A DNA stretch of 64,000 nucleotides from Bdellovibrionota bacterium. GTDB taxonomy: Bacteria > Bdellovibrionota_C > UBA2361 > JAAYZI01. A model generated the notes under the pieces. It made no database searches and was not told the origin of the DNA. It saw only the letters and a program-made list of their open reading frames with translations. Positions 24,601 to 48,805 of the stretch are shown in pieces. The position numbers were made by a program, and so were the translations under genes. The stretch spans positions 529,454 to 593,453 of the forward strand of contig JBMNIF010000002.1 of assembly GCA_050950765.1 (NCBI GenBank), written 5' to 3'. The first letter of the stretch is position 1. Each line of letters begins with the position of its first letter.

Positions 24601-24786
24601 TATTATTTAATCGATAACATTACTTTTTCTCGAGCTATTAAGATTATAAATTTAACTCTACTATTTAAGTATTACGTAACACTTACTTCTTAAGATATCT
24701 AAAACTTATTACTAATAAGGTAGAGAGAAGGATTATAAAGTTACTCGCTATCATAATCCTTCTCTGCATTTTTTAATTATTCTTCC

Positions 24787-27700
24787 TTAACCTTGCTTGC
24801 TACGCACAACCCACTCACTTGTCGTTTCCATATAGTCACACCCAGCTATCTTTGTAATATCTCCGCAATTTTCGATCTCAGATTCTGTCATACATACTTT
24901 TTTCTCACCTATGGTAACTTCTTTTTTACCACTTTCACAAACGCACACACACTCACCTTTACTATTTCTTGAAGCAACAAGGCTTTGATGCCCACATTGA
25001 ATTTTTGTCTCATCACATCCGCAAGCGCACTCATCGGCGTAATACCTTTCATCTTCTCCACAGCCGATATTTATTTTAGAATTACCCTTAAGATTTCCAT
25101 TATCATCGTACTTACAGACACAAGTATTGTCTTCTACAATCTCGTTCTCGCCGCAACTTACACACTCTTCATTTTGCATTACAAACCCTGAATTGCAGAT
25201 ACAATCACCTACTTCTTCATCCCATACTGAGTTTTCAGTACACGTCTGACATTCACAATAAGAACCATTCATAACGAGGTGTTGGTTCTCTCCTTGACAG
25301 AAATCTCCTAGGTTTGCAGCACCTGCCCCGTCTTTTTTCTTAGCACGTCCTGTTAATGAGTCTCTATCATAGATACAAGCACACTGCGTATATATAGATG
25401 CAGAACTACTTCCACTATGCGGCACAAGTTCTGTCCCATCAGGGCAAAAATCACAACTACAATTAGTCGTATCTATTAAATATTGCCCCTGCTCATGACA
25501 CTTTTCTTCACTAGTTGTTATATCATCATCACCATCAATCCCAGTTGTACAGTCGCAACCAGTACCATCTTCATTTCCAACAAAAACTGTGCCATCTTCT
25601 GCGCAATCAACACATTCACAAGATGCTTCCTTAAATTGTTTACCTTCATGAGCGCACTTTTCCTTTACAAGCGCTTGAACTTCTTCACTACACTCACAAT
25701 TTAGTGACTTGCTATCAGTTGGTGTTTGAGAATCTTCAAGGGTGTTCGGAGTGCCCGCTCTATAATTACCGTCACAGATACACCCCGACCCATCTTCAGA
25801 TAATCTTTGATTGGGATTAGTAGTGCACGTCACACACGCACACTCTGCATAATCAAAGTATTCATCGTCGTTGTCACATTCTTCTTCGAAGTGTTTTCCA
25901 CCTTCTTCACTATACTTACACTCTTCACAGTTTAACTTTGTTATATCTGAAGACTCACCTAACTTATGATAAGAATCGCACGCACAAGCTTCTACTCCGA
26001 CCCCTCCAGTACTTGTAGTATTCTCTCCGCAAGAGAGGCAGTCACACTTTTCATAATCGAAGTATGTACCTTCAGGACATTTAGTACCATCACTACCAAA
26101 TGCAGCGCCGTCTACGTCTGAAGCATATTTACAAACGCAATCTCCTATCTCTTCACCTTCAGTAGATATAGTTTGATATGGAGTACAACAACTGCACTGA
26201 GTTATACTAAAGTTTCTTGAGTCCTTAATACAGGCTTCGTATTTGGTTTTAGTCTCTCCCTCTGTTATATTACAGGAACAGGTGCTACCTTTTACCGCTA
26301 CACTATCTTCACATTTACAATAAGCAGCGTTACCTTCTCTAATAAACGTACCACCTGTTTTTTCGCATAACTCTTCAAGCGTAGCAATATCAACATTATT
26401 AGGTCCAGCACCGGAGCTATTGCCCTTACCGTCGCCACCGCCGCTACCACCTTTTCCGCACTTTGCAGAATCTGTACAGGTACAACTTAAGCCGTCACCT
26501 TTATAGCCGTTAGTAGTATCACAGACACAAGTTGTACCATTAAAAGTTGCTCCCGTAGCAGTACAACACTTCTCCTCCTTGCAGGAACACGATCCCTTTT
26601 CACTGTAATAACCTTGTGAGTTGTCGCAGACGCAAGTATGGTTACCTTGTGCATCAGTACCTGCCGCATAACCTTTCTTAGAATCACAAACACAGTTCCC
26701 ATTAGCATCTTGGAAGGTATTGGCTATACAAATACACCCTGCTTCTGTTGCTTCTCTAAAATCTTGATTTCGACAAACACAGTTATCTGTCCCTGCTTCA
26801 AACTCATTACTGACACAGGTGCAACTACCATTTATCAGTGAACGATTGTTTTCACAGACACAGTTTCCGCCGTATGCCTTAAAGTATTTATTCTCATCAC
26901 AGACACAGATACCGTCTTTCCTTATATAATTATTACGGCAGACGCAGTTAGGCAGCTTAACAGAAACGCCCTCTATTGTCTCAGTTTTATAACTCAATAC
27001 CTCATTATTCGAACAACTTCCTATACCACCACAATCACAAGTATCTTCGCTAAATGGATTATAACCATGATCCTTACACCAAGCAGAGATCTCTCTTTTT
27101 TGAGCTTCTGTATAATTACATTCACACCTTTCAGTAGCAGAATTGTAAGTTTTATTTCTATCCCTACATTCGCAATCGCAGGTAGCTTTATTAAACTTTA
27201 AACCTCGATCACTACACCATTTTTGCACTGCCGTTTCATTACAAGAGCCGCCACCGCCGCCACCTGCTAGATCTCCAGCAGCTACTCCACCTCCTGTAAT
27301 ACCATCAGAGATATCACAGCTACAGATCTCAGTGTAATACGCCACCTTTTTATCGTAGCAGTATTGTTTAGAATTTGGTGTATTAGCCTCCTCATCATCA
27401 CACTCACAGGCACAGGTATCTGTATTTAACTTACCAAGCCCGTTCTTTGTTATACAATCTTCAGGGGTAAGGGGGCACTCACAAACCATACTCCCCTCTT
27501 CCTCTGTAACTACAAAGTTCTCAGGACAGACACACTCATAATACCCTTTTTTAGTCTCTTTTACCGTCCAAGCTCCACTTCCACAAGAATCACAGGAGCA
27601 GGTCTCTGCGTTAAAGATAGAAGCTCCTTGCCTAGTACAATCATCTTGAGAATCCCTATATTTAGGACATTGACATTCACAATAATACTTCGTCTCTTTT

Positions 27701-29475
27701 TTTTCATTTATAGTTATAGTTTTAGATTTTTTACTAGGTACCTTATTCCCCTTACATCCATTAGGATCACAACTAAGCTCACATGTATATTTATCGTTAT
27801 TTTTAATAAGGTGTGCTTGGAGCATTTTATCTCCATCTAATCCACCTAGCTTTGAAACATCACATTCGCACATACAGTTATCTTGATTAACTTTCTGATG
27901 GTCAGGATCGTAGCAGTTACTATTCTCTTTAAAATATTCTTTTAAAGTATATATTTTGTAACAATCACAACTATCACGTGCCGTTCTTCCCTTTTTAGCT
28001 GGATCGCTACAAGCACAATATAAAGATGAAGAGTTAGCACTTCTCTCAGTGCCTTCAGGACAATCGACACAAGTCCAGTGCCCATCGATTACTTGTACAG
28101 TTTGATTATCTTCACAATCACAATCACAAGTTGGAATTTGGCTTGAAGGTGTCAAGCTTTTACAAAGCCCTTTTTCACATTCGCACCATTCATTTCCTGC
28201 CCCATCACTCTTTTTAACAGAGCCTCGATTACATATTTGACAATTACCGCTGGCATTTTTTACATAATTATCATTACAAACACACTCTAAACCATCTTCA
28301 GAGGCGTGCGCATTAGATCCGCACTGTACGCACTGACAGGCACTATTAACTACTGTTTTACACCCTTCAAAAGTTGCCTCATCAGTAGGTTTAAGATCTG
28401 TTGGTGTAGGATTAGCACTATTGTCGCAACAGATACTATCACCAACCTCCTTCCAAACTAGCTTTGAATAATCGCAGACACAACTGTTATCTTCTGCGCT
28501 ATACTCTTGATTCTCCGCACAGTTATTACAGTAACAGCCGCCACCTGTCTCGTAAGTGCCGACTACGCCTGCACACACAAAGCCACTCCCCTCGATATCA
28601 TAGAGGCATCGACATCCACTCCCTTCTTCATCTGTATACAACACCTCATTTGGTCCACAATTTGTTGTATTATTTACACATGCACAGACTCCACGCTCAT
28701 CTCTAATAGCGACCTGATAGGCGGTATTACAATTAATCAGTTCAGGCTTACAAAGACACTTTCCATCTTCATCCTTTTCACACTCTAATAACGGCGGCAT
28801 ATTTGATTTCGTACTAAGCTCTCTATAAGCAGAAGCTTTAGCTGTAAAAACAAAATCAGGTATCCACGGTGAAAGTGTTTTATACTTGGTGTGGACTGTC
28901 ACTTCTATTGGGATTCTAGTTAGACCGTCTCTTAACGATTTCGATTCCTCAGTAGCTTCACCCTCAAGAGCGTACTTAGCTCCTTGAACGGGGAGTTTAA
29001 TCTCTATTATTCCTTTATCTGTTGCTTTTCCTTGCTCGTCATCTCTTACAGCTAATAGCTGCACAACCCCTTTGTCATTAACCTTTCTCTCTTCAATCTC
29101 TTTATCGTTTAGAGTTCCGATTAAAAAACCCTCCATATACTTATAAGCACGGTCTCTAATGCTTATCATCGCAGGTGCATTTTCTTGAATACCAACTTCA
29201 CTACACTCTTCCTGACCAGTATTCATATTCACTACGCAAAGATCTTTGACCACATCTTCAAGATCCGGCACAACAGCTGCCAGTTGTGCAGCCTGTTCTG
29301 CTGCATTTTGGATGGTGGTCTTAGCATAAAGCGCAAATGAAAAGTCTATAATTCCTAAAATTAGGATTAGGAATATCGGTATTCCTATGGCGAACTCAAC
29401 CATCGTTGCACCACAATTTCTTACGTTGTTATTTTTAATAGTAGTCATAATAATTACCTCATTAAATACCAACAC
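24787..29475 (-). CDS. Giant (1562 aa) TadE-like pseudopilin-N-terminus protein made of cysteine-rich CxC repeats
   Basis: N-terminus GATMVEFAIGIPIFLILILGIIDFSFALY (TadE-like). About 1300 aa of repeating C-x-C-x(10-16)-C units (CVCDENKY.., CVCENN.., CTCVSN.., CVCRNQ..). Gly-rich linkers (GGGGGGS). Start overlaps the stop of the upstream tadE-like gene. Confidence 0.6.
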   Translation of the reverse strand: MLVFNEVIIMTTIKNNNVRNCGATMVEFAIGIPIFLILILGIIDFSFALYAKTTIQNAAEQAAQLAAVVPDLEDVVKDLCVVNMNTGQEECSEVGIQENAPAMISIRDRAYKYMEGFLIGTLNDKEIEERKVNDKGVVQLLAVRDDEQGKATDKGIIEIKLPVQGAKYALEGEATEESKSLRDGLTRIPIEVTVHTKYKTLSPWIPDFVFTAKASAYRELSTKSNMPPLLECEKDEDGKCLCKPELINCNTAYQVAIRDERGVCACVNNTTNCGPNEVLYTDEEGSGCRCLYDIEGSGFVCAGVVGTYETGGGCYCNNCAENQEYSAEDNSCVCDYSKLVWKEVGDSICCDNSANPTPTDLKPTDEATFEGCKTVVNSACQCVQCGSNAHASEDGLECVCNDNYVKNASGNCQICNRGSVKKSDGAGNEWCECEKGLCKSLTPSSQIPTCDCDCEDNQTVQVIDGHWTCVDCPEGTERSANSSSLYCACSDPAKKGRTARDSCDCYKIYTLKEYFKENSNCYDPDHQKVNQDNCMCECDVSKLGGLDGDKMLQAHLIKNNDKYTCELSCDPNGCKGNKVPSKKSKTITINEKKETKYYCECQCPKYRDSQDDCTRQGASIFNAETCSCDSCGSGAWTVKETKKGYYECVCPENFVVTEEEGSMVCECPLTPEDCITKNGLGKLNTDTCACECDDEEANTPNSKQYCYDKKVAYYTEICSCDISDGITGGGVAAGDLAGGGGGGSCNETAVQKWCSDRGLKFNKATCDCECRDRNKTYNSATERCECNYTEAQKREISAWCKDHGYNPFSEDTCDCGGIGSCSNNEVLSYKTETIEGVSVKLPNCVCRNNYIRKDGICVCDENKYFKAYGGNCVCENNRSLINGSCTCVSNEFEAGTDNCVCRNQDFREATEAGCICIANTFQDANGNCVCDSKKGYAAGTDAQGNHTCVCDNSQGYYSEKGSCSCKEEKCCTATGATFNGTTCVCDTTNGYKGDGLSCTCTDSAKCGKGGSGGGDGKGNSSGAGPNNVDIATLEELCEKTGGTFIREGNAAYCKCEDSVAVKGSTCSCNITEGETKTKYEACIKDSRNFSITQCSCCTPYQTISTEGEEIGDCVCKYASDVDGAAFGSDGTKCPEGTYFDYEKCDCLSCGENTTSTGGVGVEACACDSYHKLGESSDITKLNCEECKYSEEGGKHFEEECDNDDEYFDYAECACVTCTTNPNQRLSEDGSGCICDGNYRAGTPNTLEDSQTPTDSKSLNCECSEEVQALVKEKCAHEGKQFKEASCECVDCAEDGTVFVGNEDGTGCDCTTGIDGDDDITTSEEKCHEQGQYLIDTTNCSCDFCPDGTELVPHSGSSSASIYTQCACIYDRDSLTGRAKKKDGAGAANLGDFCQGENQHLVMNGSYCECQTCTENSVWDEEVGDCICNSGFVMQNEECVSCGENEIVEDNTCVCKYDDNGNLKGNSKINIGCGEDERYYADECACGCDETKIQCGHQSLVASRNSKGECVCVCESGKKEVTIGEKKVCMTESEIENCGDITKIAGCDYMETTSEWVVRSKQG

Positions 29476-29478
29476 TTC

Positions 29479-30147
29479 CTAGTTTCTAATCAGATATGGA
29501 GTAGTCTCCGTTATAGTAACGTCAGCCTTACCTCCTATAAACACCGCGAAATTAAAGATACTTTTATACGGCACCGAGACCTCTACCTTCACACGAGTGA
29601 CTGAGGAAACTGAATAAACAACATCCTCTGTATTATCATTTTTTTCAGCACACGGTTTGTACTCATCGCCACACAAGGTTTCAACTTTTCTAATAGATCC
29701 CTCTGGCTCAATATAATTCGAATATCCCGCCCATCTAGGCGGTTTTTGTCTTCTTAAAAGTGAATTAACCCTATCTAATACAGCGTACTGCGCAACGTTA
29801 CTGCCATCTATAACAGAAGAACGCTCTCCATTCCCCACCTCCGTAGCATACCCCTTTCCGATACTCGGTCTCGAAGCAGCAAACCTAGCACCTTCATAAG
29901 CGATACTTTTTAATTTGAAGTATTCGTTCAAATAACAGGAGACTTCAAAGATGCCGACCAATATCAGTAGCATCACAGGAGCAACCAGCGCTAACTCTAC
30001 TAAAACCAATCCACGCTCTTTTATATTTTTCCTGCTCGTGCTTTTAGAAGAGGGGAAAAGGTGAGATAACCCTCTGTAAAATTTTGTCCTTTCTGTTTTT
30101 TCTGAAGCACTAAGCATAATTAAACCGAAAAAACTTATAACAACCAC
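29479..30147 (-). CDS. TadE-like pseudopilin
   Basis: ERGLVLVELALVAPVMLLILVGIFEVSCYL matches the TadE N-terminal consensus. First gene of the operon. Has an extra hydrophobic N-terminal extension. Confidence 0.6.
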   Translation of the reverse strand: MVVISFFGLIMLSASEKTERTKFYRGLSHLFPSSKSTSRKNIKERGLVLVELALVAPVMLLILVGIFEVSCYLNEYFKLKSIAYEGARFAASRPSIGKGYATEVGNGERSSVIDGSNVAQYAVLDRVNSLLRRQKPPRWAGYSNYIEPEGSIRKVETLCGDEYKPCAEKNDNTEDVVYSVSSVTRVKVEVSVPYKSIFNFAVFIGGKADVTITETTPYLIRN

Positions 30148-30621
30148 ATAAAAACTGCCGCCTTTCTCTTAAGAAAGGTCACTACCGAACAGACAAGAGA
30201 GAACGTGGTACCTAAAAAACGGTACTCACAACTCACGCAAAAAAACGTACTTAGGGAGTCTGCAAGAAACGATCCTTATTTATATTTAAAAAAACTCCCT
30301 TTGTTACCGTTTATTCAATAACTAGCAATTTCTTGTAGATGCAGATCACTTCAAAAAAGATCTTTTTATTTTATTATGAATAGAGCACCCCTATGCTCCT
30401 CCAACGCTCTATTCTAGGCAAGAGTAAAAGATTACGGGATAAAGCGCTGAATATCATTCATAAAAAGGGGAATTACTCAACACAAAGAACGTTAGGCGCC
30501 CCCTTTCACTTAACCTTAAAGGTAAAAAGAATCACTATTTTCTGAATCCTCACCACCAAACCTCTAATCTATGAAAGGTGCTGTCTTTTCATTTTAATAT
30601 TTTTAAGGATGCTTTTTTAAG

Positions 30622-32874: not shown

Positions 32875-35800
32875 CTACATCGCTGCTAATTTCTGATAGT
32901 AAGCAAAACGATCCGTTACATTCTTCTGTAACTTCTCCAGTAGAAGTGCAGCACGCTCAGGATTCTTAGTCCTTAAAATATTAAAGCGATTTTCGCCGTA
33001 GATATAATCTGTAAGGGGCAAAGTCGGCTCTTTAGAATCAAAGATAAGTGGATTCTTACCCTCTTTTGCCAAATCAGGATTATACCGATACAACAACCAA
33101 GAACCGCTATTAACTGCTTTCTTCTGCTCTTCCAGCCCCTTCTTAAGATCAATGCCGTGCGCAATACAGTGCGAATAGCAGATAATCAGAGATGGGCCAT
33201 CATAAGCTTCGGCTTCCTTAATCGCCTTCACAGCGTGCTGGTCATTAGCACCAAGCGAGATACTAGCAACATAAACGTGCTTATAACTCATCGCCTGTAA
33301 GCCGATATCTTTCTTGTTCATTGTTTTACCAGCAGCAGCAAAGAGCGCGACAGCTCCTGTCGGTGTAGATTTTGACATCTGTCCACCTGTATTTGAATAC
33401 ACTTCAGTATCCAGCAATAACACATTAATGTTCTCACCTGATGCTAAAGCGTGATCCAATCCGCCGTAACCGATATCATACGCCCAGCCGTCACCACCGA
33501 TAATCCAGACACTCTTCTTAGAGAGGTAATCAGCCAAAGAAAGTAAAGACTGCGCCTCAAAGGATTTGTTATTAGCTATGGCAGCCTTTAGTTGTGCAAT
33601 CCTCTCTCGTTGAGCTTTAATCTCTGACTCATCATGCTCTGTGGCGTTTAAGATATCGTTAGCTAAACTCTCACCGATTTCAGCCTTCAACGCACTTACT
33701 AACTCTCTAGCCTGTTCAGCTTTTTTATTCACTGTTAAACGGAAGCCTAAACCGTATTCGGCATTGTCTTCGAAAAGTGAATTTGACCAAGCAGGACCAC
33801 GCCCCTCTGCATTCTTACAATACGGAGTGGTCGGTAAATTACCGCTATAAATTGAAGAGCACCCCGTTGCATTAGCCACAAGCATTCTGTCGCCAAAAAG
33901 TTGTGTTACGAGTTTAATGTACGGAGTTTCTCCACAACCGGCGCAAGCACCTGAGAACTCAAAAAGAGGTCTAAGCAACTGAGAGCCTTTAACGGTTGCT
34001 TGGTTAACAGCCGAACGGTCAGTATAATCAAGCGTCTCAAAGAACTCCCAATTCTTAACTTCACGCTCTCTAATCGGTACAAACGGTACCATGTTAATAG
34101 CTTTCTGCCCTTCAACCTTTTTGCTCTTAACAGGACAAGCATCGATACAGATTCCGCAACCGGTACAATCTTCCGTAGAGATCTGTAAGATGAATTGTGT
34201 TCCTTCCGGAAAATCTTTGCCCTTTGTTGGAGCTGACTTAAAGCCTTGCGGTGCAGATTTTAACTTTGCACCTTCACAAGTTTTCATCCTGATAACTGCG
34301 TGCGGACAAACAATGGAGCACTTACCACACTGAATACACGCTTCAGGATCCCACTCCGGAACTGTTAATGAGATAGCACGTTTTTCCCACTGCGTGGTGG
34401 CAGTCGGATAAGCACCATCGGCAGGCATCTGACTTACCTTCAAAGCTTCGCCCTCATCAATCATCATCGGAGCTAAAACTTCCTTAACGAACTTAGGCGC
34501 ATGCTCAGGCACAGCACTCTTACGACGGATTGTGCTAGTTGGTGTTGCCGGAACAGGGATCTCATGCAAATTACTCAGAGACTCATCAACAGCCTTGAAG
34601 TTTTTCTGAACGACATCTTCACCCTTACTACTGTAAGATTTTTTAATAGCACCTTTAATCTTCTCAATCGCCTCTTCTCGCGGAAGGATATTAGCGATAG
34701 CAAAGAAACAGGCTTGCAGGATGGTATTTATTCTGCTGCCCATACCGGTCTTCTTAGCTACTTCATAAGCATTGATTGAATAGAACTTGATCTTCTTTTC
34801 GATAATTGTTTGTTGAATCTCATAAGGTAACTTGTCCCAAACTTCATCCTTAGAATACGGTGCATTCAAAAGGAAGGTTGCTCCAGAACACGCTTCTTTT
34901 AAGACATCTAATTTTTCCAATAAGCTGAACTGATGACACGCTACAAAGTTGGCGTGGTCGATCAGATAGATTGAACGGATCGGATCTTTACCAAACCTTA
35001 AGTGCGATTTTGTTAAACCACCCGATTTTTTAGAGTCATAAACAAAGTAGCCTTGTGCATGGTTATCAGTCTCTGTACCGATGATCTTAATGGAGTTTTT
35101 ATTAGCACCAACTGTGCCATCAGAGCCGAGTCCGATAAAAACACCGCGGAAGGAGTTCTCGTTTTCAGTTCTAAAGTCTACATCATAAGTAAGGCTGGTA
35201 TGAGAAACATCATCATTAATACCAACAGTAAAGTGATTCTTCGGATCATCTTTTTTAAGTTCATCAAAAACCGCCTTGATCATAGCCGGTGTAAACTCTT
35301 TGGAAGATAAGCCATAACGTCCGCCGATAATCTTGGCATGTCGTCCTGCTTCTGCAAAGGCAGCAACAACATCAAGATAGAGCGGCTCACCAACACAACC
35401 TGACTCTTTAGTTCTATCCAAAACTGCTACGCTCTTTACAGTAGTTGGGATAGCAGCCATAAGATCTTTTATTGAGAAAGGACGGTATAAACGCACCTTC
35501 AAGACACCGACCTTCTCACCCATCTTCTTAGTCATATAATCTACAACTTCAGAAGAGGTTTCAGCGCCGGAGCCCATCAAGATCAGTAAACGCTCGGCAT
35601 CAGGAGCGCCATAATAATCAAAGAGGTGATACTCACGTCCCGTTACCTTAGCAAACTCTTTCATAGCAGTTTTAACGATCTCAGGAGTAGCTGCATAATA
35701 CGGATTACAAGCTTCTCTAGACTGGAAGAAGGTGTCTGGATTTTGTGCGGTACCTCCGATCCTCGGTTGTTCAGGACGCAAGCCGCGCTCTCTATGAGCG

Positions 35801-36402
35801 ATCACATCTTTAATATCGATCAAACTCTTCATCTGATCTTGCGTTAACTTTTCAATCTTCATCAACTCGTGCGAAGTTCTAAAACCATCAAAGAAGTGAA
35901 GGAATGGAACTCTAGCTTTTAACGTTGACATATAAGCTATCATCGCTAAGTCCATCGCCTCTTGCACTGAATTAGAAGCAAGCATGGCGAACCCTGTCTG
36001 ACGACAAGCATAAACATCGCTATGGTCGCCAAAGATTGAGAGGGCGTGAGTCGCTAAAGTACGCGCTGCTACATGGAAAACAGTTGAGGTCAACTCACCT
36101 GCAATCTTATACATATTAGGGATCATTAAGAGCAGACCTTGAGAGGCAGTAAAAGTCGTACTTAAAGCACCTGCTTGTAAGGCTCCGTGTACAGCACCTG
36201 CAGCACCTGCTTCACTCTGCATCTCATAAACTTTAGGAGTAATGCCAAAGATGTTCTTCATATTTTTGGCACTCCAACTATCTGAGTATTCACCCATCGG
36301 AGAAGAAGGGGTGATCGGGTAAATCGCGATAACCTCACTCAAATTAAAACCAACATGCGCCGCAGCTTCATTGGCATCCATAATAACTTTTTCAGTAGTC
36401 AT
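32875..36402 (-). CDS. nifJ: Pyruvate:ferredoxin (flavodoxin) oxidoreductase, single-chain PFOR
   Basis: 1175 aa with an N-terminal PFOR domain I pattern. Two 4Fe-4S ferredoxin motifs (CIQCGKCSIVCP; CTGCGICIDACP). TPP-binding GGDGWAYDIG block. Confidence 0.9.
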   Translation of the reverse strand: MTTEKVIMDANEAAAHVGFNLSEVIAIYPITPSSPMGEYSDSWSAKNMKNIFGITPKVYEMQSEAGAAGAVHGALQAGALSTTFTASQGLLLMIPNMYKIAGELTSTVFHVAARTLATHALSIFGDHSDVYACRQTGFAMLASNSVQEAMDLAMIAYMSTLKARVPFLHFFDGFRTSHELMKIEKLTQDQMKSLIDIKDVIAHRERGLRPEQPRIGGTAQNPDTFFQSREACNPYYAATPEIVKTAMKEFAKVTGREYHLFDYYGAPDAERLLILMGSGAETSSEVVDYMTKKMGEKVGVLKVRLYRPFSIKDLMAAIPTTVKSVAVLDRTKESGCVGEPLYLDVVAAFAEAGRHAKIIGGRYGLSSKEFTPAMIKAVFDELKKDDPKNHFTVGINDDVSHTSLTYDVDFRTENENSFRGVFIGLGSDGTVGANKNSIKIIGTETDNHAQGYFVYDSKKSGGLTKSHLRFGKDPIRSIYLIDHANFVACHQFSLLEKLDVLKEACSGATFLLNAPYSKDEVWDKLPYEIQQTIIEKKIKFYSINAYEVAKKTGMGSRINTILQACFFAIANILPREEAIEKIKGAIKKSYSSKGEDVVQKNFKAVDESLSNLHEIPVPATPTSTIRRKSAVPEHAPKFVKEVLAPMMIDEGEALKVSQMPADGAYPTATTQWEKRAISLTVPEWDPEACIQCGKCSIVCPHAVIRMKTCEGAKLKSAPQGFKSAPTKGKDFPEGTQFILQISTEDCTGCGICIDACPVKSKKVEGQKAINMVPFVPIREREVKNWEFFETLDYTDRSAVNQATVKGSQLLRPLFEFSGACAGCGETPYIKLVTQLFGDRMLVANATGCSSIYSGNLPTTPYCKNAEGRGPAWSNSLFEDNAEYGLGFRLTVNKKAEQARELVSALKAEIGESLANDILNATEHDESEIKAQRERIAQLKAAIANNKSFEAQSLLSLADYLSKKSVWIIGGDGWAYDIGYGGLDHALASGENINVLLLDTEVYSNTGGQMSKSTPTGAVALFAAAGKTMNKKDIGLQAMSYKHVYVASISLGANDQHAVKAIKEAEAYDGPSLIICYSHCIAHGIDLKKGLEEQKKAVNSGSWLLYRYNPDLAKEGKNPLIFDSKEPTLPLTDYIYGENRFNILRTKNPERAALLLEKLQKNVTDRFAYYQKLAAM

Positions 36403-36956
36403 GACCTTTACTTCCCTTATTTAAATTAAGTAGGGGTGTCTGTTCTTCCCCCATCTCTTGCAATTTACTAAAGATTTTAACGTCGAACAGGATAAACGGA
36501 TAAACTTAAAAAAGTAGCGTGGCGAACAGAATAAGCCCCTTCCTTCTTCTCCCCCCTCTTAAAAGTTATACCTTATTATTACGTGTATTATTTTAAGATA
36601 CTCTCAAAAAAGGAACTCCGCTCTAACCCCTCATTAACAATGAAGAATTTACACCGGTTACGACGCCCGTATACTATTACAGACAGACTAAATCCACAAA
36701 TACAAGAATTGCTTCTTATTTGGTAAAAGCTTCGCATTGATAAAGGAGCAGGTTTTGCTGCAATACTCCAAAAATTAGGGTAAGTATCAATAAAGACTAG
36801 ACGATATCTTTTATTTGATCACTTCATTACCGTTTTTTTTACATTTTTTAGATGAAAAAAAGAAAAAAATTATAAAAAACACCTTTATTTAAAAATTTCA
36901 CTAAAGCTTTTCCTAAAAGATACCGACCCACCTTCTAGGGGAATAAGAGGGGTTGT

Positions 36957-39900
36957 ATGCAGAAGTTTACCTTAAGAACCTTGAAATTAGTTGTGCTGTT
37001 TAGCTTTTTCTGTGGCAGTCTGGCAGGTGCGGAAACTTTTTTGCCAACCACTCAAAATTATAACTATAATTTCAACATCCTAAACAACTTATCAACACCG
37101 CCTACTGCACAAAACTTTAATATTAAAAACTTCTCTCTCTTCTCTACCTTAAAAAAATCACTCCCCTTTAGAAGAGAGTTCTTTGGAAATCCTCCCCCTT
37201 ATCTAGCAGCGCAAGTAACCTCCATCTCTATGGGCTACTTTCACGCCTGTGCTATTGTAGGAGGGCGTCTCTATTGTTGGGGGCTTAACTCCTCCGGTCA
37301 ACTCGGGATTAACAGCACTGACACCACAACAACTCCAACTTTAACTTACGACCCTAGCACAACCTCTTTTACAGGTTTATTAGGTGGTCAAGGTGTCTCT
37401 TCTGTTTCTGCTAATGGTTATAACACCTGCGCTATCAACGCAGACGGTAAACTTTACTGTTGGGGAGAAAATGACTCTGGTCAAGTCGGGAATGGAACTC
37501 TAGGATTTGATTGTAAGTATCCAGTATTAATTGAAGATCCAAGTACACTTTCTTGTAGTGGTCTTCTAGGTTCAGAAACAGTTATCGCCGTTTCAGTAGG
37601 TGCTTCGCCCAACGACACTCCTGAAGGAGAGAGCTCCGGTAGAACTCACGTTTGCGCTATAAATGCAGATGATAAACTTTACTGTTGGGGAGATAACACC
37701 TTCGGACAATTAGGCGACGGACAAAGCGGAGGGTCTTTACCGCGTCTTGTAGGGGATAGCGGAACTTTAAATGGAAGAGGTGTTGTTCAAGTTTCAGCAG
37801 GATACAGTTTTACCTGTGCTATCAATACAGAGAGTCTCCTTTTTTGTTGGGGCAAAAACGATTACGGACAGTTGGGGATTTATTCAACAGAAAATACCAC
37901 CTCCCCCACACCTATATATAATGCAGATCCAGAAAAAGTTGGTGGACTTGGAACTGGAAACGATCCAGCGGTTATGTCAGTTTCAGCAGGTACAACTCAC
38001 ACCTGTGCCATAGAGAGCGGATATCTTTTCTGTTGGGGAGATGGTAGTTATGGAGCGCTTGGAAATGGTGATGGAACAGATAGAAGTTTTCCAGTCGCTA
38101 TCAATAAAGGATCTCCACCAGGTCAATTAGACGGAAGTATTGTTCTATCTACCTCTTCAGGATCTGGTTTTACCTGCGCTATCAACGAGATCGGTGAAAT
38201 TTATTGCTGGGGGAAAAATACTGATAAAAAACTACTCGGGATTAGTGGAGTAGATACTAGATTTCCCCAGCTTGTGGCAGGTTCAGATAGTAATCCCAAT
38301 CCTGGCTTACTAGGCACATATACTGTAAATGCCGTTTCTTGTTCAAACTCCGGTCCCTCCTATCAATCGATCTGCGGCATAAACTCACAACATAATCTTT
38401 ATTGCTGGGGAGATAGTAACTTTGGTCAATTAGGACAAAACTCTACCACTACCAATACAACACCGACACAAACACTCTTTAATGAAGACTCCACTTGTAA
38501 CGGTATCGATGATGATGGTGATGGATTAACTGATGAAGATTACGTTTCTGTATCTTGTAACACAGGGCTACACGGTTTATGCGCAGCAGGAACAACATCT
38601 TGTAACGCCGGAAGTGTAGTTTGTAATCAGACAAATTCTCCTACAACTGAGATCGCTTGTAATAATATCGATGATGACTGTGACGGTATAACTGATACTG
38701 ATGCTGCAGGTTACGGAGCTGCTTGTAATAACGGGCTACTCGGTGCGTGTTACAAAACAGGCACGATGTCAGTTTGTGATGGAGGAGTTTTAACGTGCTC
38801 TGCTCCAAACGTTGAACCTACAACTGAAGTCGCTTGTAATAATATCGATGATGACTGTGATGGAGTAACTGATACTGATGCTGCAGGTTACGGAGCTGCT
38901 TGCAATAACGGGTTACTCGGTGCGTGTTATAAAACAGGCACGATGTCAGTTTGTGATGGAGGAGTTTTAACGTGCTCTGCTCCAAACGTTGAACCTACAA
39001 CTGAAGTCGCTTGTAATAATATCGATGATGACTGTGATGGAGTAACTGATACTGATGCTGCAGGTTACGGAGATGCTTGTAATAACGGACTACTCGGTGC
39101 GTGTTATAAAACAGGCACGATGTCAGTTTGTGATGGAGGAGTTTTAACGTGCTCTGCTCCAAACGTTGAACCTACAACTGAAGTCGCTTGTAATAATATC
39201 GATGATGACTGTGATGGAGTAACTGATACTGATGCTGCAGGTTACGGAGCTGCTTGTAACAACGGACTACTCGGTGCGTGTTATAAAACAGGCACGATGA
39301 CTCTTTGTGAAGGAGGGGTTTTAACGTGTTCTGCTCCAGATGCAGATCCAGTAAGTGAAATTTGCGGTAACGGCATTGATGATGATTGTGATGGTGAAAC
39401 TGATGAAGATTGCAATGCAGAAACTCCTACCCCTACCCCTCCAGCGCCTTTTGTAGATGCTTGTCCTACCGACCCGAATAAAACTGAAGCAGGAGTTTGC
39501 GGCTGCGGTATAGCCGATAGCGATCATAACAATAACGGCATAATTGATTGCCTTGACCCGAAGTGGCCGACAACAAAAATAGATAGTATCGTTACACCAA
39601 ACACCAAACCTGTCACTCCACGGGTAGATGTAGTAAAGAAAAAGGTCGTCGTTTATATGCAACGTTTTAAACGTGCCGAGCTACTGAAAAAATTACGTAA
39701 CGTAGTTAACTATGCCAAAAAAAATAAAAGGAAAAAAATTACCTTTAGGTATGAAGTTGTTCTAAGACAGGTCTCTACTAAAACAACGTATAAAAGTATC
39801 ACGAAGAAAAAGATTCAATCTCGGATCTCAAAACGTAATAAAGTAATCTTTAAGAAACAGCGGCAAGGAACTTACAAAATTAAGTACAGAGTTAAGATCT

Positions 39901-39971
39901 ATAAGAACGGTAAACTTGCTAAGAACACGAAGTGGAGCGATTCTAAAACTGTTACAGTTTCGAAAAAGTAG
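36957..39971 (+). CDS. Secreted RCC1-repeat protein with MopE-like cysteine repeats and lysine-rich C-terminal tail
   Basis: Signal peptide. About 7 RCC1 blades (YCWG.N..GQLG). Four near-identical 56-aa repeats CNNIDDDCDGVTDTDAAGYGAACNNGLLGACYKTGTMSVCDGGVLTCSAPNVEPTTEVA (CxxxDDDCDG metal-binding-type motif). Basic K-rich C-terminus. Confidence 0.7.
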   Translation: MQKFTLRTLKLVVLFSFFCGSLAGAETFLPTTQNYNYNFNILNNLSTPPTAQNFNIKNFSLFSTLKKSLPFRREFFGNPPPYLAAQVTSISMGYFHACAIVGGRLYCWGLNSSGQLGINSTDTTTTPTLTYDPSTTSFTGLLGGQGVSSVSANGYNTCAINADGKLYCWGENDSGQVGNGTLGFDCKYPVLIEDPSTLSCSGLLGSETVIAVSVGASPNDTPEGESSGRTHVCAINADDKLYCWGDNTFGQLGDGQSGGSLPRLVGDSGTLNGRGVVQVSAGYSFTCAINTESLLFCWGKNDYGQLGIYSTENTTSPTPIYNADPEKVGGLGTGNDPAVMSVSAGTTHTCAIESGYLFCWGDGSYGALGNGDGTDRSFPVAINKGSPPGQLDGSIVLSTSSGSGFTCAINEIGEIYCWGKNTDKKLLGISGVDTRFPQLVAGSDSNPNPGLLGTYTVNAVSCSNSGPSYQSICGINSQHNLYCWGDSNFGQLGQNSTTTNTTPTQTLFNEDSTCNGIDDDGDGLTDEDYVSVSCNTGLHGLCAAGTTSCNAGSVVCNQTNSPTTEIACNNIDDDCDGITDTDAAGYGAACNNGLLGACYKTGTMSVCDGGVLTCSAPNVEPTTEVACNNIDDDCDGVTDTDAAGYGAACNNGLLGACYKTGTMSVCDGGVLTCSAPNVEPTTEVACNNIDDDCDGVTDTDAAGYGDACNNGLLGACYKTGTMSVCDGGVLTCSAPNVEPTTEVACNNIDDDCDGVTDTDAAGYGAACNNGLLGACYKTGTMTLCEGGVLTCSAPDADPVSEICGNGIDDDCDGETDEDCNAETPTPTPPAPFVDACPTDPNKTEAGVCGCGIADSDHNNNGIIDCLDPKWPTTKIDSIVTPNTKPVTPRVDVVKKKVVVYMQRFKRAELLKKLRNVVNYAKKNKRKKITFRYEVVLRQVSTKTTYKSITKKKIQSRISKRNKVIFKKQRQGTYKIKYRVKIYKNGKLAKNTKWSDSKTVTVSKK
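38630..39300. repeat. Four near-identical 168-bp tandem repeats inside the RCC1 protein gene
   Basis: Copies differ by only a few nucleotides at the DNA level. Confidence 0.8.
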
Positions 39972-40086
39972 GTGTATGTTTTTATACACCCTATTTTTTA
40001 AATGTTGGTAGCCTACCCATTCCACTTTTACAGAAATTTATATTTCTATTGAAGTATCTTTGAAAAATAACGAAAAGAGAGTCCAC

Positions 40087-41052
40087 TTAGGAAAGTTCCA
40101 GCAAGTCAGAACCTCCATTAGAATCTGCCTTATCAAAATCTACTTCATTAAGGCTTCCAGCAGGACCTCCATCGCTGCCTCTCGATTCAAGAAAGTCATC
40201 GAGGGATTGGTCTACACGTTCTCCCATTGTTCTATGAAAGTCTTCTTCAGGAACATGTTCAATAAAATTTTCTATCCTTTCTATCCTTTCTTTTAAAGTG
40301 TCTGCTATTTCAGGACCACACTCTTCTGCTAAGCGCTTAATTTCCTTAAGATAAGAAGAAAGGTTCCTAGGATCTCTATCTTTAACTTGTTCTTCAGAGA
40401 TTTTTAAATAATTGTCAATACACCTCTTCCTTACATTTTGGTAAGAATCTTTAAGTAATTGTGCATCATCTTCAGACAATTTAATATTTGCCTTTTCATA
40501 AGAGAACTTAATATCTTCTATTAAGCTATCGGCAAAAGCTACATCATCTTTATTTACTCCCTGCTTTTCTACTATTTGTTGCAAATGATACTTTAAAGAG
40601 GAAATTGAGTTCTCACAACAACGCTGTAAAAATTCATCGAGCAGCTCACTTTGATATTTTTTAATTTTTTCAATTGCTCCACTTGCAAACGAGACACTAC
40701 CACTTGCAGCGTACTCCTCCAAACATTGCAAATAGTGCTGAATACCGTTTCTTCGTGCTGAGAGTAAACAAGATTGCAGCTCTCCAAGCTCTTCTGCACT
40801 AAACAGATTAGTATTAGAAGAACCAACTTTAGCTTTACGCATCTCATCAAAGACCTTATCTGCTCTAGCAACAGCCCCATACTTGGCATAAAATTTTAAG
40901 CGCCACAGGAAAAAATCTTTGGAGACACTTGGACTGAGAAAAGACGCTTCTTCTAGTGGAGGACTTTCGGAACCCTCTTTAGGATCTATGCCTTGACGAT
41001 CTTGACGAGTTCGTTTTTGATATGACGGATTATCTGATTTTATTGGCGGCAT
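40087..41052 (-). CDS. Paralog-family B protein (copy 1), unknown function
   Basis: Pro/Ser-rich N-terminus. Shares LQSCLLSARRNGIQHYLQC and YLKISEEQVKDRDPRNLSSYLKEIKRLAEECG blocks with 41305..42135. Confidence 0.45.
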   Translation of the reverse strand: MPPIKSDNPSYQKRTRQDRQGIDPKEGSESPPLEEASFLSPSVSKDFFLWRLKFYAKYGAVARADKVFDEMRKAKVGSSNTNLFSAEELGELQSCLLSARRNGIQHYLQCLEEYAASGSVSFASGAIEKIKKYQSELLDEFLQRCCENSISSLKYHLQQIVEKQGVNKDDVAFADSLIEDIKFSYEKANIKLSEDDAQLLKDSYQNVRKRCIDNYLKISEEQVKDRDPRNLSSYLKEIKRLAEECGPEIADTLKERIERIENFIEHVPEEDFHRTMGERVDQSLDDFLESRGSDGGPAGSLNEVDFDKADSNGGSDLLELS

Positions 41053-41304: not shown

Positions 41305-42135
41305 TTATTTTAAAGTGTCTACTATTTTAAGACCACATTCTTCTGCTAAGCGCTTAATTTCCTCAAGATAAGGGGAAAGGTTCCTAGAATCTCCATCTTT
41401 AACTTGTTCTTCAGAGATTTTTAAATAAATTTCAATACTCTTTTGCCTTACACTTTTGTAAGAATCTTTAAGGAATTGTGCGACCTCTTCAGGCATTTCA
41501 CGCTTTGCATATACATAGTAGAGCTCGAGATCATTTTTAAATTGATCAGCATCAGCGATATACGCTTTTAATACATTAACAACATCTAGATCGATATTTA
41601 GATCTATTTCATACTTTTTTAATTTGGCGGCATAATTTTTTAATATTTCAACATCACTTAGTTTTACTATCTTGTTCAATTTATACTTAGCAGAAGGAAT
41701 CGCTACCGCCAAACATTCCCTAAAAAGTTCATCAACCCACTCCTGAGTAGCAGGAGCCTTTTCAGTACCCAGAACTTTTTCATATTGTGTAATTTTATTA
41801 AGTGTTTTTAGTGCAAGCCCAACATCACCACCTTGAGCGTACTCCTTAAAGCATTGCAGCAAGTGCTGAATACCGTTTTTTCGTGCTGAGAGTAAACAAG
41901 ATTGCAGTTTTTCGAGCTCTTCTGCACTAAGTAGATCGTGCTCACGTAATAAGTCAAAGTACCTATGAGTCCTATCAACATTTCCGATCTTGGCATAAAA
42001 TTTTAAGCGAGCTAATAGATCATCTACATTAGGTAAAGACGCTTCCTCTAATGGAGAACTTTCGGGGGAACTCCCTTGAGAGGGATTAGAACCTTGAGAG
42101 TGGTTAGGAGGTGTGGAGCTTAAGTTTATCGACAT
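41305..42135 (-). CDS. Paralog-family B protein (copy 2), unknown function
   Basis: Paralog of 40087..41052 with the same conserved blocks. Confidence 0.45.
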   Translation of the reverse strand: MSINLSSTPPNHSQGSNPSQGSSPESSPLEEASLPNVDDLLARLKFYAKIGNVDRTHRYFDLLREHDLLSAEELEKLQSCLLSARKNGIQHLLQCFKEYAQGGDVGLALKTLNKITQYEKVLGTEKAPATQEWVDELFRECLAVAIPSAKYKLNKIVKLSDVEILKNYAAKLKKYEIDLNIDLDVVNVLKAYIADADQFKNDLELYYVYAKREMPEEVAQFLKDSYKSVRQKSIEIYLKISEEQVKDGDSRNLSPYLEEIKRLAEECGLKIVDTLK

Positions 42136-45909: not shown

Positions 45910-46035
45910 ATACCTTACGGCGTAAAGATATGCTTATGATAAAAAAGGGGTGGGTGCTGCTTAGGCTTTTTTTGAATAATTTTTTAGATAAGAATCCTGC
46001 ACAATTGATTGATGCTAAATTTATGGAGTTTTATT

Positions 46036-47070
46036 ATGCATAAAAAAATCGTTAGTTTATTTTCAGGAGCAGGTGGCTTGGATAAAGGCTTTGAAAAAGC
46101 CGGATTTGATATTGTATGGGCAAATGAATTTGATCCTACAATTTGGGAAACTTTTGAACACAACTTCCCTAACACCTATCTAGACAAAAGAAGCATACGG
46201 GATGTTCCGTCAAATGATATTCCGGAGTGTATTGGTATTATTGGTGGACCTCCGTGTCAAAGTTGGTCGGAAGCCGGTTCATTACGAGGCATCAACGACT
46301 CAAGGGGACAACTCTTTTATGAATTCATAAGAACCTTAAGAGATAAAAAACCACTATTCTTTTTAGCTGAAAATGTTGAGGGGATGCTTGCACAAAGACA
46401 TGCGCAAGCTTTAGCCAAGATAAAGTATCTGTTTAAAGAGTCAGGCTATAATCTAAGTTTTAAATTGATTAATGCAAATAATTACAACGTCCCTCAAGAT
46501 AGGAAGCGTGTAATTTTTATAGGATATAGAGATGATTTAAATTTAACTTTTGAATTTCCAAAAGAATCTAACTACAAACCTGTTCTGCAAGATGCCATTT
46601 GGGATTTAAAAGATTCAGCGATACCAGCGAAAGAAAAGAATTACACGAATGGAACAAAATGTATTGTTCCTAATCATGAATATATGATCGGTGGATTTTC
46701 AACGATATATATGTCAAGAAACCGAGTTAGGGCTTGGGATGAACCGTCTTTTACAATTCAAGCAGGCGGCAGGCACGCCCCCATACATCCACAAGCACCA
46801 AAGATGACATTCATTGAACAAAATAAACGTGAATTTGTAAAAGGAAAAGAGGACTTGTATCGTAGGCTATCGTTACGTGAATGTGCGAGAATTCAAACTT
46901 TCCCAGATGATTTTATCTTTAAATATGACAATCTGATAAATGGTTACAAGATGGTTGGAAATGCTGTGCCTGTAAACATGGCGTACATTCTCGCAACTAA
47001 AATAATGCAAGATCTGTCAGCAATCTTAAATTTTGAAGATATACAGGAAAAGAGATCGGTTAATTTTTAA
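46036..47070 (+). CDS. DNA (cytosine-5)-methyltransferase
   Basis: [13 protein letters not shown] (motif I), GGPPCQSWS (motif IV PCQ), ENVEG (motif VI), C-terminal QTFPDDF. The ORF track start at 46009 probably over-extends. ATG at 46036 has a GGAG RBS. Confidence 0.8.
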
Positions 47071-47785
47071 TGGCTAAAACCTCTGCTCTTTGAGCGCCTT
47101 TTAGATCTCTAATGGCATAGAGGGTGATTGTTGAACTTACGCCCCGCTTTCTCAAATCCTTAACATATTGCAGAACCTTTTCTTGGTCGCCACGCAGCAC
47201 ATCCTTAAGACACCAACCTACCCCTTTTCGTACGAGATCCTCCTTGTCTTTAAGTAAGTTTTCACATAACGCCAAGGCAGGCTTAGTGAACTTACCACTC
47301 TCGCCACATTTACGAGTAAAAGCTACTACACTTGCTCGACGCTTCCACATATTTTTAGACCTGTTCCAGTTGCTAATCAATTTCAAGACCTCTTGGGGAT
47401 ACCTATTAAGAAGGGGTTGTAATACATCGATGCAAAAATCATCAATAGTAGACCAACTATTAAAATAGTTTAAAGCTCTATCTAAAAAAGCTAAGTGATC
47501 TACGCCGAGAGAATCGATATTAGTTTGTAAGATAAAATTTCCTGCTAGAACTGTTTCCTCTACTCTATCACGATAAAAAAGAAGTGCTAACGCCACACTG
47601 TCTTTGCAAGAAAGCGCACTAATGCGGCGTTTGTATGATTTAAGAATCCGGTCACGCACGGAGGTCTTCACACCGTAAGAACGATACCCGTCGTACTTAT
47701 GATACCTTGCGCTATCTTGAGCTACTTTTTTATCAGCAGCACAAAGCAACTCATTCTTAATCTCTTGATATAAACTTTTTATCAC
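47060..47785 (-). CDS. AlkD-like DNA alkylation repair (HEAT-like repeat) protein, putative
   Basis: About 240 aa helical-repeat protein. [18 protein letters not shown] resembles AlkC/AlkD family tryptophan motifs. Confidence 0.4.
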
Positions 47786-47996: not shown

Positions 47997-48085
47997 TGGC
48001 GGAGAGAGGGGGATTCGAACCCCCGGTAGGGGTAACCTACACACGCTTTCCAAGCGTGCGCCTTCAGCCACTCGGCCATCTCTCC
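47997..48085 (-). tRNA. tRNA-Ser (anticodon GGA)
   Basis: Reverse complement gives GGAGAGATGGCCGAGTGG..., a long variable arm, anticodon loop TTGGAAA and an encoded CCA. Confidence 0.8.
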
Positions 48086-48169
48086 ATTAAGACGGTAACG
48101 GTGCAACTCTATCGACGAGCACCTTTTTTAAAAACAGATAAAAAACCATCTTTCAAGGTGTAAAGAGAA

Positions 48170-48256
48170 CGGAGAGGAAGAGATTCGAACTCTCGGTACA
48201 GTTTCCCGTACACACACTTAGCAGGCGTGCGCCTTCAGCCACTCGGCCACCTCTCC
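48170..48256 (-). tRNA. tRNA-Ser (anticodon GCT)
   Basis: Reverse complement gives GGAGAGGTGGCCGAGTGG..., anticodon loop CTGCTAA and a long variable arm. Confidence 0.8.
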
Positions 48257-48360
48257 AAATCAGAATACCTTTCTCTCAAAAAAGGCTCTTCTTGGTTTTT
48301 ATCACTTTTTTATAGCATAAAAAATAATATGTTTAATAATATCAATTGATAAACAACAAT

Positions 48361-48447
48361 CGGTGGGAAAGGGATTCGAACCCCCGGACCCCTTTCGAGA
48401 TCTCTGGTTTTCAAGACCAGCGCCTTCAACCACTCGGCCATCCCACC
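48361..48447 (-). tRNA. tRNA-Ser (anticodon TGA)
   Basis: Reverse complement gives GGTGGGATGGCCGAGTGG..., anticodon loop CTTGAAA and a long variable arm. Confidence 0.8.
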
Positions 48448-48728
48448 ATATTTTAAACGCTATAAGGTGCGTAGAGTAGGCAGAAACGGTAAAAATGGCA
48501 AGTCTCTAAACGCTTTTTCCTAATATAGTTATAAGTTTTAGTTAAAGCTTTTAATTCACTAGCTAGAATAAAAATCGCACGCGGCTCTAAACGCTTTTTC
48601 CTAATACTCCTAACTACTTTTCAAAAGAGATCACCTTTAAAGCATCTACTTTGTAACGTTTTTTATGCTCTAAAATATTTCTTCAAAAGACTCCCAAAAA
48701 ATCTTCCTTTGTGTAAAAATGCGCTTGT

Positions 48729-48805
<77 letters not shown>

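Follow-up and report, generated by a model that had tools for sequence, protein, structure and literature searches.

A very basic FN3-like C-terminal domain and a lineage-specific Cys/Asp repeat array in a probably exported RCC1 protein of a Bdellovibrionota bacterium

What kind of protein joins an RCC1 propeller to a run of near-identical Cys/Asp repeats and ends in a strongly basic segment? The question is raised by an open reading frame (ORF) of 1004 codons at 36957..39971 (+) in the DNA analyzed here, a 64,000-nt stretch (the window) from a bacterium labeled as Bdellovibrionota. An earlier note on this DNA, which placed the ORF at exactly these coordinates, had described a secreted, eukaryote-like RCC1 propeller fused to four recently expanded 56-residue MopE-type metal-binding repeats and a histone-like lysine tail. 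We found that the lysine-rich end belongs to an uncatalogued family of basic fibronectin type III (FN3)-like C-terminal domains, which is absent from Pfam and NCBIfam, and that the repeats form a lineage-specific array. The results are chiefly corrective, as RCC1 proteins are commonplace in bacteria, the 'copper' motif is misnamed, and the 'histone-like' tail was misread. In NCBI, the identical protein is MGI6524557.1, 'MAG: RCC1 domain-containing protein [Bdellovibrionota bacterium]', from a 1.25-Mb contig of a metagenome-assembled genome (MAG), and a copy in Joint Genome Institute (JGI) data, which differs at one residue, is annotated 'alpha-tubulin suppressor-like RCC1 family protein'. Public annotation thus already names the RCC1 content.

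The last 128 residues of the protein contain 24% Lys and 33% Lys plus Arg, with a net charge of +38; the ORFs of the window average 12.4% Lys plus Arg and reach 16.6% at most. An exhaustive phmmer search with this domain against 1.84 billion representatives (E ≤ 0.001) gave 25 relatives, and every one of the 25 matches stops no more than about 20 residues short of the C-terminus. The carriers are RCC1 proteins, YWTD-type propellers, and PD40/TolB-type propellers. A paralogue from the same MAG has a C-terminal domain 65% identical to this one, together with RCC1 repeats and no MopE units. The domain also occurs in short or stand-alone forms, namely P0137 (123 residues, with a Met start) and P0145 (149 residues, with no Met start and probably partial). 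It is usually preceded by a CPxDPxKxxPGxCGCG...D-x-D...DC motif, often in several copies, which in the window protein occupies residues 835-868 and has no Pfam match. The alignment gives the consensus SKRN..TFK.LKxG.Y...YRV.I...GK....T..SP...F.V for the domain itself. Every one of the 25 members is net basic, and some have Arg in place of Lys, which argues for selection on the basic charge and against its being a side effect of low G+C.

AlphaFold2, run with the alignment, gave an eight-strand all-beta model with a predicted local distance difference test (pLDDT) score of 87.8 and a predicted template modeling (pTM) score of 0.80. Two loops are of low confidence, the Lys-rich insertion among them. 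A single-sequence model of residues 798-1004 was poor (pLDDT 49.6). As modeled, the C-terminal domain has the FN3 beta-sandwich fold. Thus, the lysine richness that had been noted is real, and the histone-like or disordered tail is refuted by the conserved family, the invariant aromatic residues, and the confident all-beta model. The domain of the window protein has no Pfam match at E ≤ 10 and no NCBIfam hit, and a sequence search of the PDB with it returned nothing, as did searches of genome contigs and metagenome contigs with the C-terminal protein. Among the 25 members, the sub-threshold Pfam matches are to a mixture of Ig-like and E-set families and include those to CopC (14), to fn3 (six, the best at 0.0037), and to the type IX secretion system (T9SS) sorting domain PF18962 (one, E = 0.023); the window protein has no match to the last. 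The family differs from fibronectin type III (PF00041) in falling below every Pfam threshold, in its extreme basic charge, and in the Lys-rich insertion between strands. Known only at the C-terminus of beta-propeller exoproteins, this conserved, very basic domain is a candidate for domain libraries.

The Cys/Asp repeats form a tandem array at 38640-39338, found by Tandem Repeats Finder with 3.9 copies, 96% matches, and a score of 1272. The period is 177 nt, or 59 residues, in place of the 168 bp and 56 residues given before. There are indeed four near-identical copies, and a unit profile finds six motif-bearing modules in all, with a degenerate one before the four and a truncated one after. 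In each module, an Asp-rich C-x-x-(I/V)-D-D-D-C-D-G-x-T-D motif comes first and a segment with four Cys comes next. The six Cys of a unit are all conserved and are arranged as expected of disulfides; Cys7 is kept in at least 90% of aligned units and Cys14 in nine of ten. The degenerate module, which we number 0, is 43% identical to unit 1 and reads CNGIDDDGDG, with Gly replacing the second Cys, as in teneurins. The near-identity of the four at the nucleotide level (Table 1) was correctly described, and the differences among units 1-3 are mostly synonymous, with two, one, and three amino-acid changes in the pairwise comparisons. The 13 nucleotide differences between units 3 and 4 change seven amino-acid positions.

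How old is this array? The units are 86-98% identical to each other within the protein, as against 41-47% to the units of the homologue P0035 and 64-71% to the single unit of P0125. The core units of P0035 are in turn 84-93% identical to each other, forming their own near-identical set. The number of motif modules also differs: P0123 lacks them, P0125 has a single full unit and a terminal motif, P0035 has seven, and the window protein has six. Since identity within a protein greatly exceeds identity between proteins, expansion, homogenization, or both have taken place separately in each lineage, and the recent expansion proposed from the sequence is borne out. Furthermore, the central units are the most alike and the edge units the most diverged or decayed, which is the usual signature of an array homogenized by unequal exchange. 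Tandem-repeat surface proteins such as Rib/alpha-C of group B streptococci and SasG/Aap vary in length by whole units. The present protein resembles them in having in-frame, near-identical stalk units between a proposed head and a proposed anchor, with the central units most alike, and differs from them in the fold of the unit. It offers a clean example of lineage-specific expansion and homogenization of a Cys/Asp module that is, by analogy, of the Ca2+ type.

Three assemblies could be compared at the population level, the window and the JGI assemblies L001 and L002 (samples 3300062814 and 3300060823). The array of L001 reads as units 1-2-2-4, with four changes exactly at the four sites that distinguish unit 2 from unit 3. 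That of L002 reads as units 1-3-4, and its protein has 945 residues, or 1004 minus 59. Over 10 kb, the upstream flank of L002 and the downstream flank of L001 match the window without a difference. The upstream flank of L001 has a sole difference, a 15-nt tandem duplication (CCTTATTTATATTTA) between genes near the TadE genes, where the window has one copy (about 30259-30273), so the sampled populations are not fully identical or strictly clonal. Apart from this, the two assemblies depart from the window solely within the array. Exact repeats of 142, 149, and 159 nt occur in the array and exceed usual assembler k-mers, so that misassembly in a de Bruijn graph would yield 1-2-2-4 and 1-3-4 equally well. 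The differences are what recombination would produce, and short-read misassembly explains them equally well. We did not accept them as proof of copy-number variation, as the variants are alternative paths through the repeat graph. A search of metagenome contigs with an exact 44-nt flank pattern returned nothing.

What metal, if any, do the units bind? The hidden Markov model searches with PF00415 and PF11617 suggested in the earlier note were run, and both families exceeded their Pfam gathering thresholds. For Cu-binding_MopE (PF11617), the whole protein scored 45.7 bits in five stretches, with a cut-off of 27. This threshold is reached only by summing motifs, since fragments with one to three motifs score 20-22 bits, and the matches are confined to the latter half of the model's 30 positions. 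The high-affinity Cu(I) site of MopE consists of His-132, His-203, and a Trp-derived kynurenine-130 (PMC3423442), and CorA has a Cu(I) site of the same kind plus a structural Ca2+ (PMC3912023). The four central units (residues 562-797) contain 10% Cys and 13% Asp, with no His and no Trp, so a MopE copper site is impossible there. Thus, the MopE-type motif stands and the MopE-like copper function does not. Nor was the beta-sandwich body of MopE and CorA found, as a PDB sequence search at E ≤ 10 gave no chain of either protein. What these methanotroph proteins, from which PF11617 takes its name, have in common with the window protein is the Asp-rich motif and a secreted or surface location, which for the window protein is probable. 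The Pfam motif resembles an Asp-rich stretch of MopE*, GLDTLDRDGDGSTADADC, which is invisible in the crystal and for which Cu(II) binding was only suggested (PMC3423442). MopE* itself is Ca2+-stabilized (PMC3423442, PMC3912023).

The motif has a solved analogue in the Cys-rich region of teneurins, which has been aligned to PF11617 (PMC3278476). In its 1.5-Å structure, Asp residues hold three Ca2+ ions in a geometry like that of thrombospondin type 3 (TSP3) and LDL-A modules, with three disulfides (PMC9058538). The core C-x-D-x-(I/L/V)-D-(N/D)-D-(C/G)-D-G-x-x-D is common to teneurin, TSP3, and the present units, and module 0, with DDDGDGLTD, has the teneurin form. The Asp-rich motif, for which a D-x-D-x-D-G-x-x-D loop between disulfide Cys would be expected, is found in all six modules. 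The pattern of Cys after the motif differs from that of teneurin and TSP3. The units are most likely disulfide-locked structural modules that would be stabilized by Ca2+, as their motif resemblance suggests.

The propeller is securely identified and of a common bacterial kind. It scored 181 bits over seven stretches with Pfam RCC1 (PF00415; cut-off 21.7), 172.5 bits with RCC1_2 (PF13540; cut-off 22), and 219.1 bits with WD40_RLD (PF25390; cut-off 150). Its seven [YF]CWG blade motifs, at residues 106, 167, 242, 296, 358, 416, and 482, are spaced by 54-75 residues, in agreement with the estimate of about seven blades, and from the sequence seven repeats would suffice to close a seven-bladed propeller. 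The closest solved chains in a PDB sequence search are UVR8 (4e-39), the RCC1-like domain (RLD) of HERC2, RCC2, RPGR, and RCC1. In a search for homologues, 5885 of the 8000 candidates scored had E ≤ 0.001, and among the 120 matches listed the few with a source name are bacterial or archaeal. On this subject, bioRxiv 10.1101/2023.11.21.568195 cites Stevens & Paoli 2008 and Swart et al. 2020. Given this abundance in bacteria, the description 'eukaryote-like' carries no weight. Many bacterial RCC1 proteins combine RCC1 with FN3, IPT/TIG, Big, or sorting tails, and the combination of RCC1 with the MopE motif also recurs, in P0015 and P0035. The seven [YF]CWG..N..GQLG blades are shared with RLD proteins such as UVR8, HERC2 RLD, RCC1, and BLIP-II. 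In contrast to RCC1 and UVR8, there is no sign of guanine-nucleotide exchange factor activity or UV sensing here, and the propeller heads a probably secreted multi-module protein. Guanine-nucleotide exchange on Ran-type GTPases is not expected of an exported bacterial protein.

Export by the Sec pathway is probable from the layout of the N-terminus, with basic residues at K3, R7, and K10, a hydrophobic run from L11 to L22, and AGA|E at the putative cleavage site; the signal peptide reported before is therefore upheld as a prediction. The mature protein would contain 53 Cys, which is compatible with an oxidizing compartment. The net charge is -20 for the propeller, -51 for the Cys/Asp region, and +38 for the C-terminal domain.

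We lean, modestly, toward a stand-alone exported product resembling an adhesin or binding protein, with a propeller head, a Ca2+-stabilized stalk, and a basic C-terminal anchor. After export by the Sec signal peptide, the seven-bladed RCC1-like propeller would serve as the ligand-binding head. The six acidic disulfide-locked modules would form a stiff stalk, each binding Ca2+ structurally as in TSP3 and teneurin, followed by the Pro/Thr linker and one further Asp-rich CGCG motif. The basic FN3-fold domain would then tether the protein electrostatically to an anionic surface, which may be the outer membrane or matrix of the producing cell or else a target cell. The charge layout and the strictly C-terminal position fit this anchoring role. 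The four central modules would have arisen by recent tandem duplication, and unequal recombination or gene conversion would maintain their similarity, so that the stalk length could change in 59-residue steps. Several observations weigh against this proposal. The sequence leaves either end as the possible cell-attached end, and the Ca2+ assignment is founded on motif resemblance. No PDB chain, teneurin and TSP included, significantly matches the units in a sequence search, the sole hint being calmodulin EF-hand loops at an insignificant E = 3.3. A conserved gene neighborhood around the relatives was looked for and not found. Finally, YchF of the window is at most 63% identical to that of any species representative searched.

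The main rival to the anchored binding protein is that the C-terminal domain is a sorting or secretion signal, read by a dedicated export or attachment machinery like the T9SS. The domain is always at the extreme C-terminus, on unrelated passengers (RCC1, YWTD-type, and PD40-type propellers), two or more proteins from this one MAG carry it, and it has short or stand-alone forms, all of which a sorting signal would explain. The C-terminal beta-sandwich of T9SS cargo is a positional analogue, and this domain has no link to a T9SS beyond the weak match of a single member noted above. Moreover, the domain occurs once in the 64-kb window and once in each of two further contigs, no shared neighboring genes were found among the carriers, and about 25 relatives per 1.84 billion representatives are few for a sorting signal. 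We therefore regard this explanation as unlikely, though it deserves to be kept in view. A folded version of the 'histone-like' idea, in which the domain binds nucleic acid such as extracellular matrix DNA, would account for the charge of +38 in 128 residues and for the basic character kept across the family. The FN3 fold has no known DNA-binding signature, and the charge would suit lipopolysaccharide, an acidic polysaccharide, or the acidic stalk of the same protein equally well, so we give this possibility little credit.

The two remaining alternatives take their start from the names of the matched families. If the repeats bound copper as in MopE, the protein would act in copper capture or handling. 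The Pfam score and the suggestion that carboxylate-rich segments of MopE* may be weak Cu(II) sites (PMC3423442) speak for this, but the two His plus kynurenine of the defined Cu(I) site have no counterpart in the units, the model is matched in its Asp-rich half only, MopE and CorA chains of the PDB have no sequence match, and the six conserved Cys of each unit have a disulfide-type pattern. A copper role is thus very improbable, and the copper-binding reading of the repeats was rejected, the Cu site of MopE lying elsewhere in that protein. The protein might also be a eukaryote-derived RCC1 effector, like LegG1/PieG of Legionella, acting on Ran-type GTPases in a host. It has RCC1 repeats, its best solved relatives (UVR8, HERC2) are eukaryotic, and RCC1 effectors of Legionella are documented (Swart et al. 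2020, as cited in bioRxiv 10.1101/2023.11.21.568195). However, RCC1 proteins were recovered by the thousand from public genomic and metagenomic sequences, surface-type domains accompany RCC1 in many of them, and a Sec-type signal together with 53 Cys in disulfide-type modules points to an extracellular protein, not to a translocated cytosolic one. The G+C content of the gene region (0.41-0.42) equals that of the remaining window. We hold such an effector to be the least credible explanation of all. Horizontal acquisition from a eukaryote was likewise rejected, on the lack of a compositional anomaly and the abundance of bacterial homologues.

Going beyond the single protein, we tentatively suggest that residues 877-1004 represent an unrecognized family of C-terminal modules for surface attachment or sorting, restricted to exported proteins with a beta-propeller (RCC1, YWTD-type, PD40-type) from bacteria that are poorly sampled, and that the stalk is a length-tunable spacer varying within populations. 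This broader proposal is possible but doubtful. If it is true, the family would mark proteins for cell-surface display that form a small class not seen before. The features of the gene are collected in Table 1.

Table 1. Features of the RCC1 gene and its product (window coordinates; aa, residues of the protein).
Feature	Position	Strand	Remark
Shine-Dalgarno-like AAGAGGGG	36945..36952	+	4 nt between its end and ATG; read from sequence
Probable Sec signal peptide, aa 1-25 (MQKFTLRTLKLVVLFSFFCGSLAGA, then E)	36957..37031	+	Basic n-region, 12-residue hydrophobic core, AGA|E
Asn-rich linker, aa 26-85	37032..37211	+	No Pfam match at E ≤ 10
Seven-bladed RCC1-like beta-propeller, aa 86-508	37212..38480	+	Pfam RCC1, WD40_RLD; seven [YF]CWG motifs
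Degenerate (older) Cys/Asp module 0, aa 509-561, motif CNGIDDDGDGLTDED	38481..38639	+	Unit profile match 1.5e-18
59-aa unit 1, MopE-type motif CNNIDDDCDGITDTD and four-Cys segment	38640..38816	+	8 nt differ from unit 2
59-aa unit 2	38817..38993	+	4 nt differ from unit 3
59-aa unit 3	38994..39170	+	Replaced by a unit 2 copy in assembly L001
59-aa unit 4, 3' third divergent	39171..39347	+	13 nt differ from unit 3, 11 of 13 at offsets 129-176
Truncated terminal module, aa 798-819 (CGNGIDDDCDGETDEDC)	39348..39413	+	Unit profile match
Pro/Thr linker, aa 820-834	39414..39458	+	Read from translation; paralogue P0123 has the same linker type
Motif ACPTDPNKTEAGVCGCGIADSDHNNNGIIDCLDP, aa 835-868	39459..39560	+	Asp-rich, thrombospondin-type-3-like by eye
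Basic FN3-fold C-terminal domain (model), aa 877-1004	39585..39968	+	Invariant F904, Y973, Y977, T991, S994
Terminator-like hairpin (39971-39990) plus T-run	39971..40000	+	Common to the convergent gene; consensus match only

The RCC1 gene is solitary, with a divergent PFOR gene upstream (32875..36402, -) and a convergent gene downstream (40087..41052, -). The divergent intergenic region (36403-36956) is 554 nt long and has an A/T-rich run at about 36840-36900; its promoter-like sites show no excess over chance, and a search of Rfam found tRNAs only, with no family in this region. The convergent gene (40087-41052, -) and its neighbor (41305-42135, -), directly downstream of the RCC1 gene, are adjoining paralogues of 321 and 276 residues (46% identical, E = 2e-64), with Ser/Pro-rich N-termini (…SPLEEAS…) and no matching Pfam family.

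Upstream, the genes at 22699-30147 (-) resemble a Tad/Flp-pilus-associated set in which one pseudopilin-like protein is unusually large. It contains a giant protein of 1562 residues (24787-29475, -), with a TadE/Tad pilin-like domain at its N-terminus, flanked by a second TadE-like gene (29479-30147) and by a gene for a von Willebrand factor A (VWA)-domain protein (22699-24600). These Tad pilus genes lie 7-14 kb upstream of the RCC1 gene, and the gene of P0035, a distant homologue with RCC1, MopE units, and the basic C-terminal domain (GCA_016648615.1, on a 7.4-kb contig), is directly followed by one whose small product weakly matches N_methyl (type IV pilin-like). A loose association with pili is possible.

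A cluster of tRNA genes at 47997-48805 comprises three tRNA-Ser (GGA, GCT, TGA) on the - strand and then a tRNA-Arg(ACG) on the + strand. Before it, a gene for a C-5 cytosine DNA methylase (308 bits; 46009-47070, +) has an 11-nt convergent overlap with an ORF at 47060-47785 (-), the counterpart of which in L001 is annotated PF08713 DNA_alkylation.

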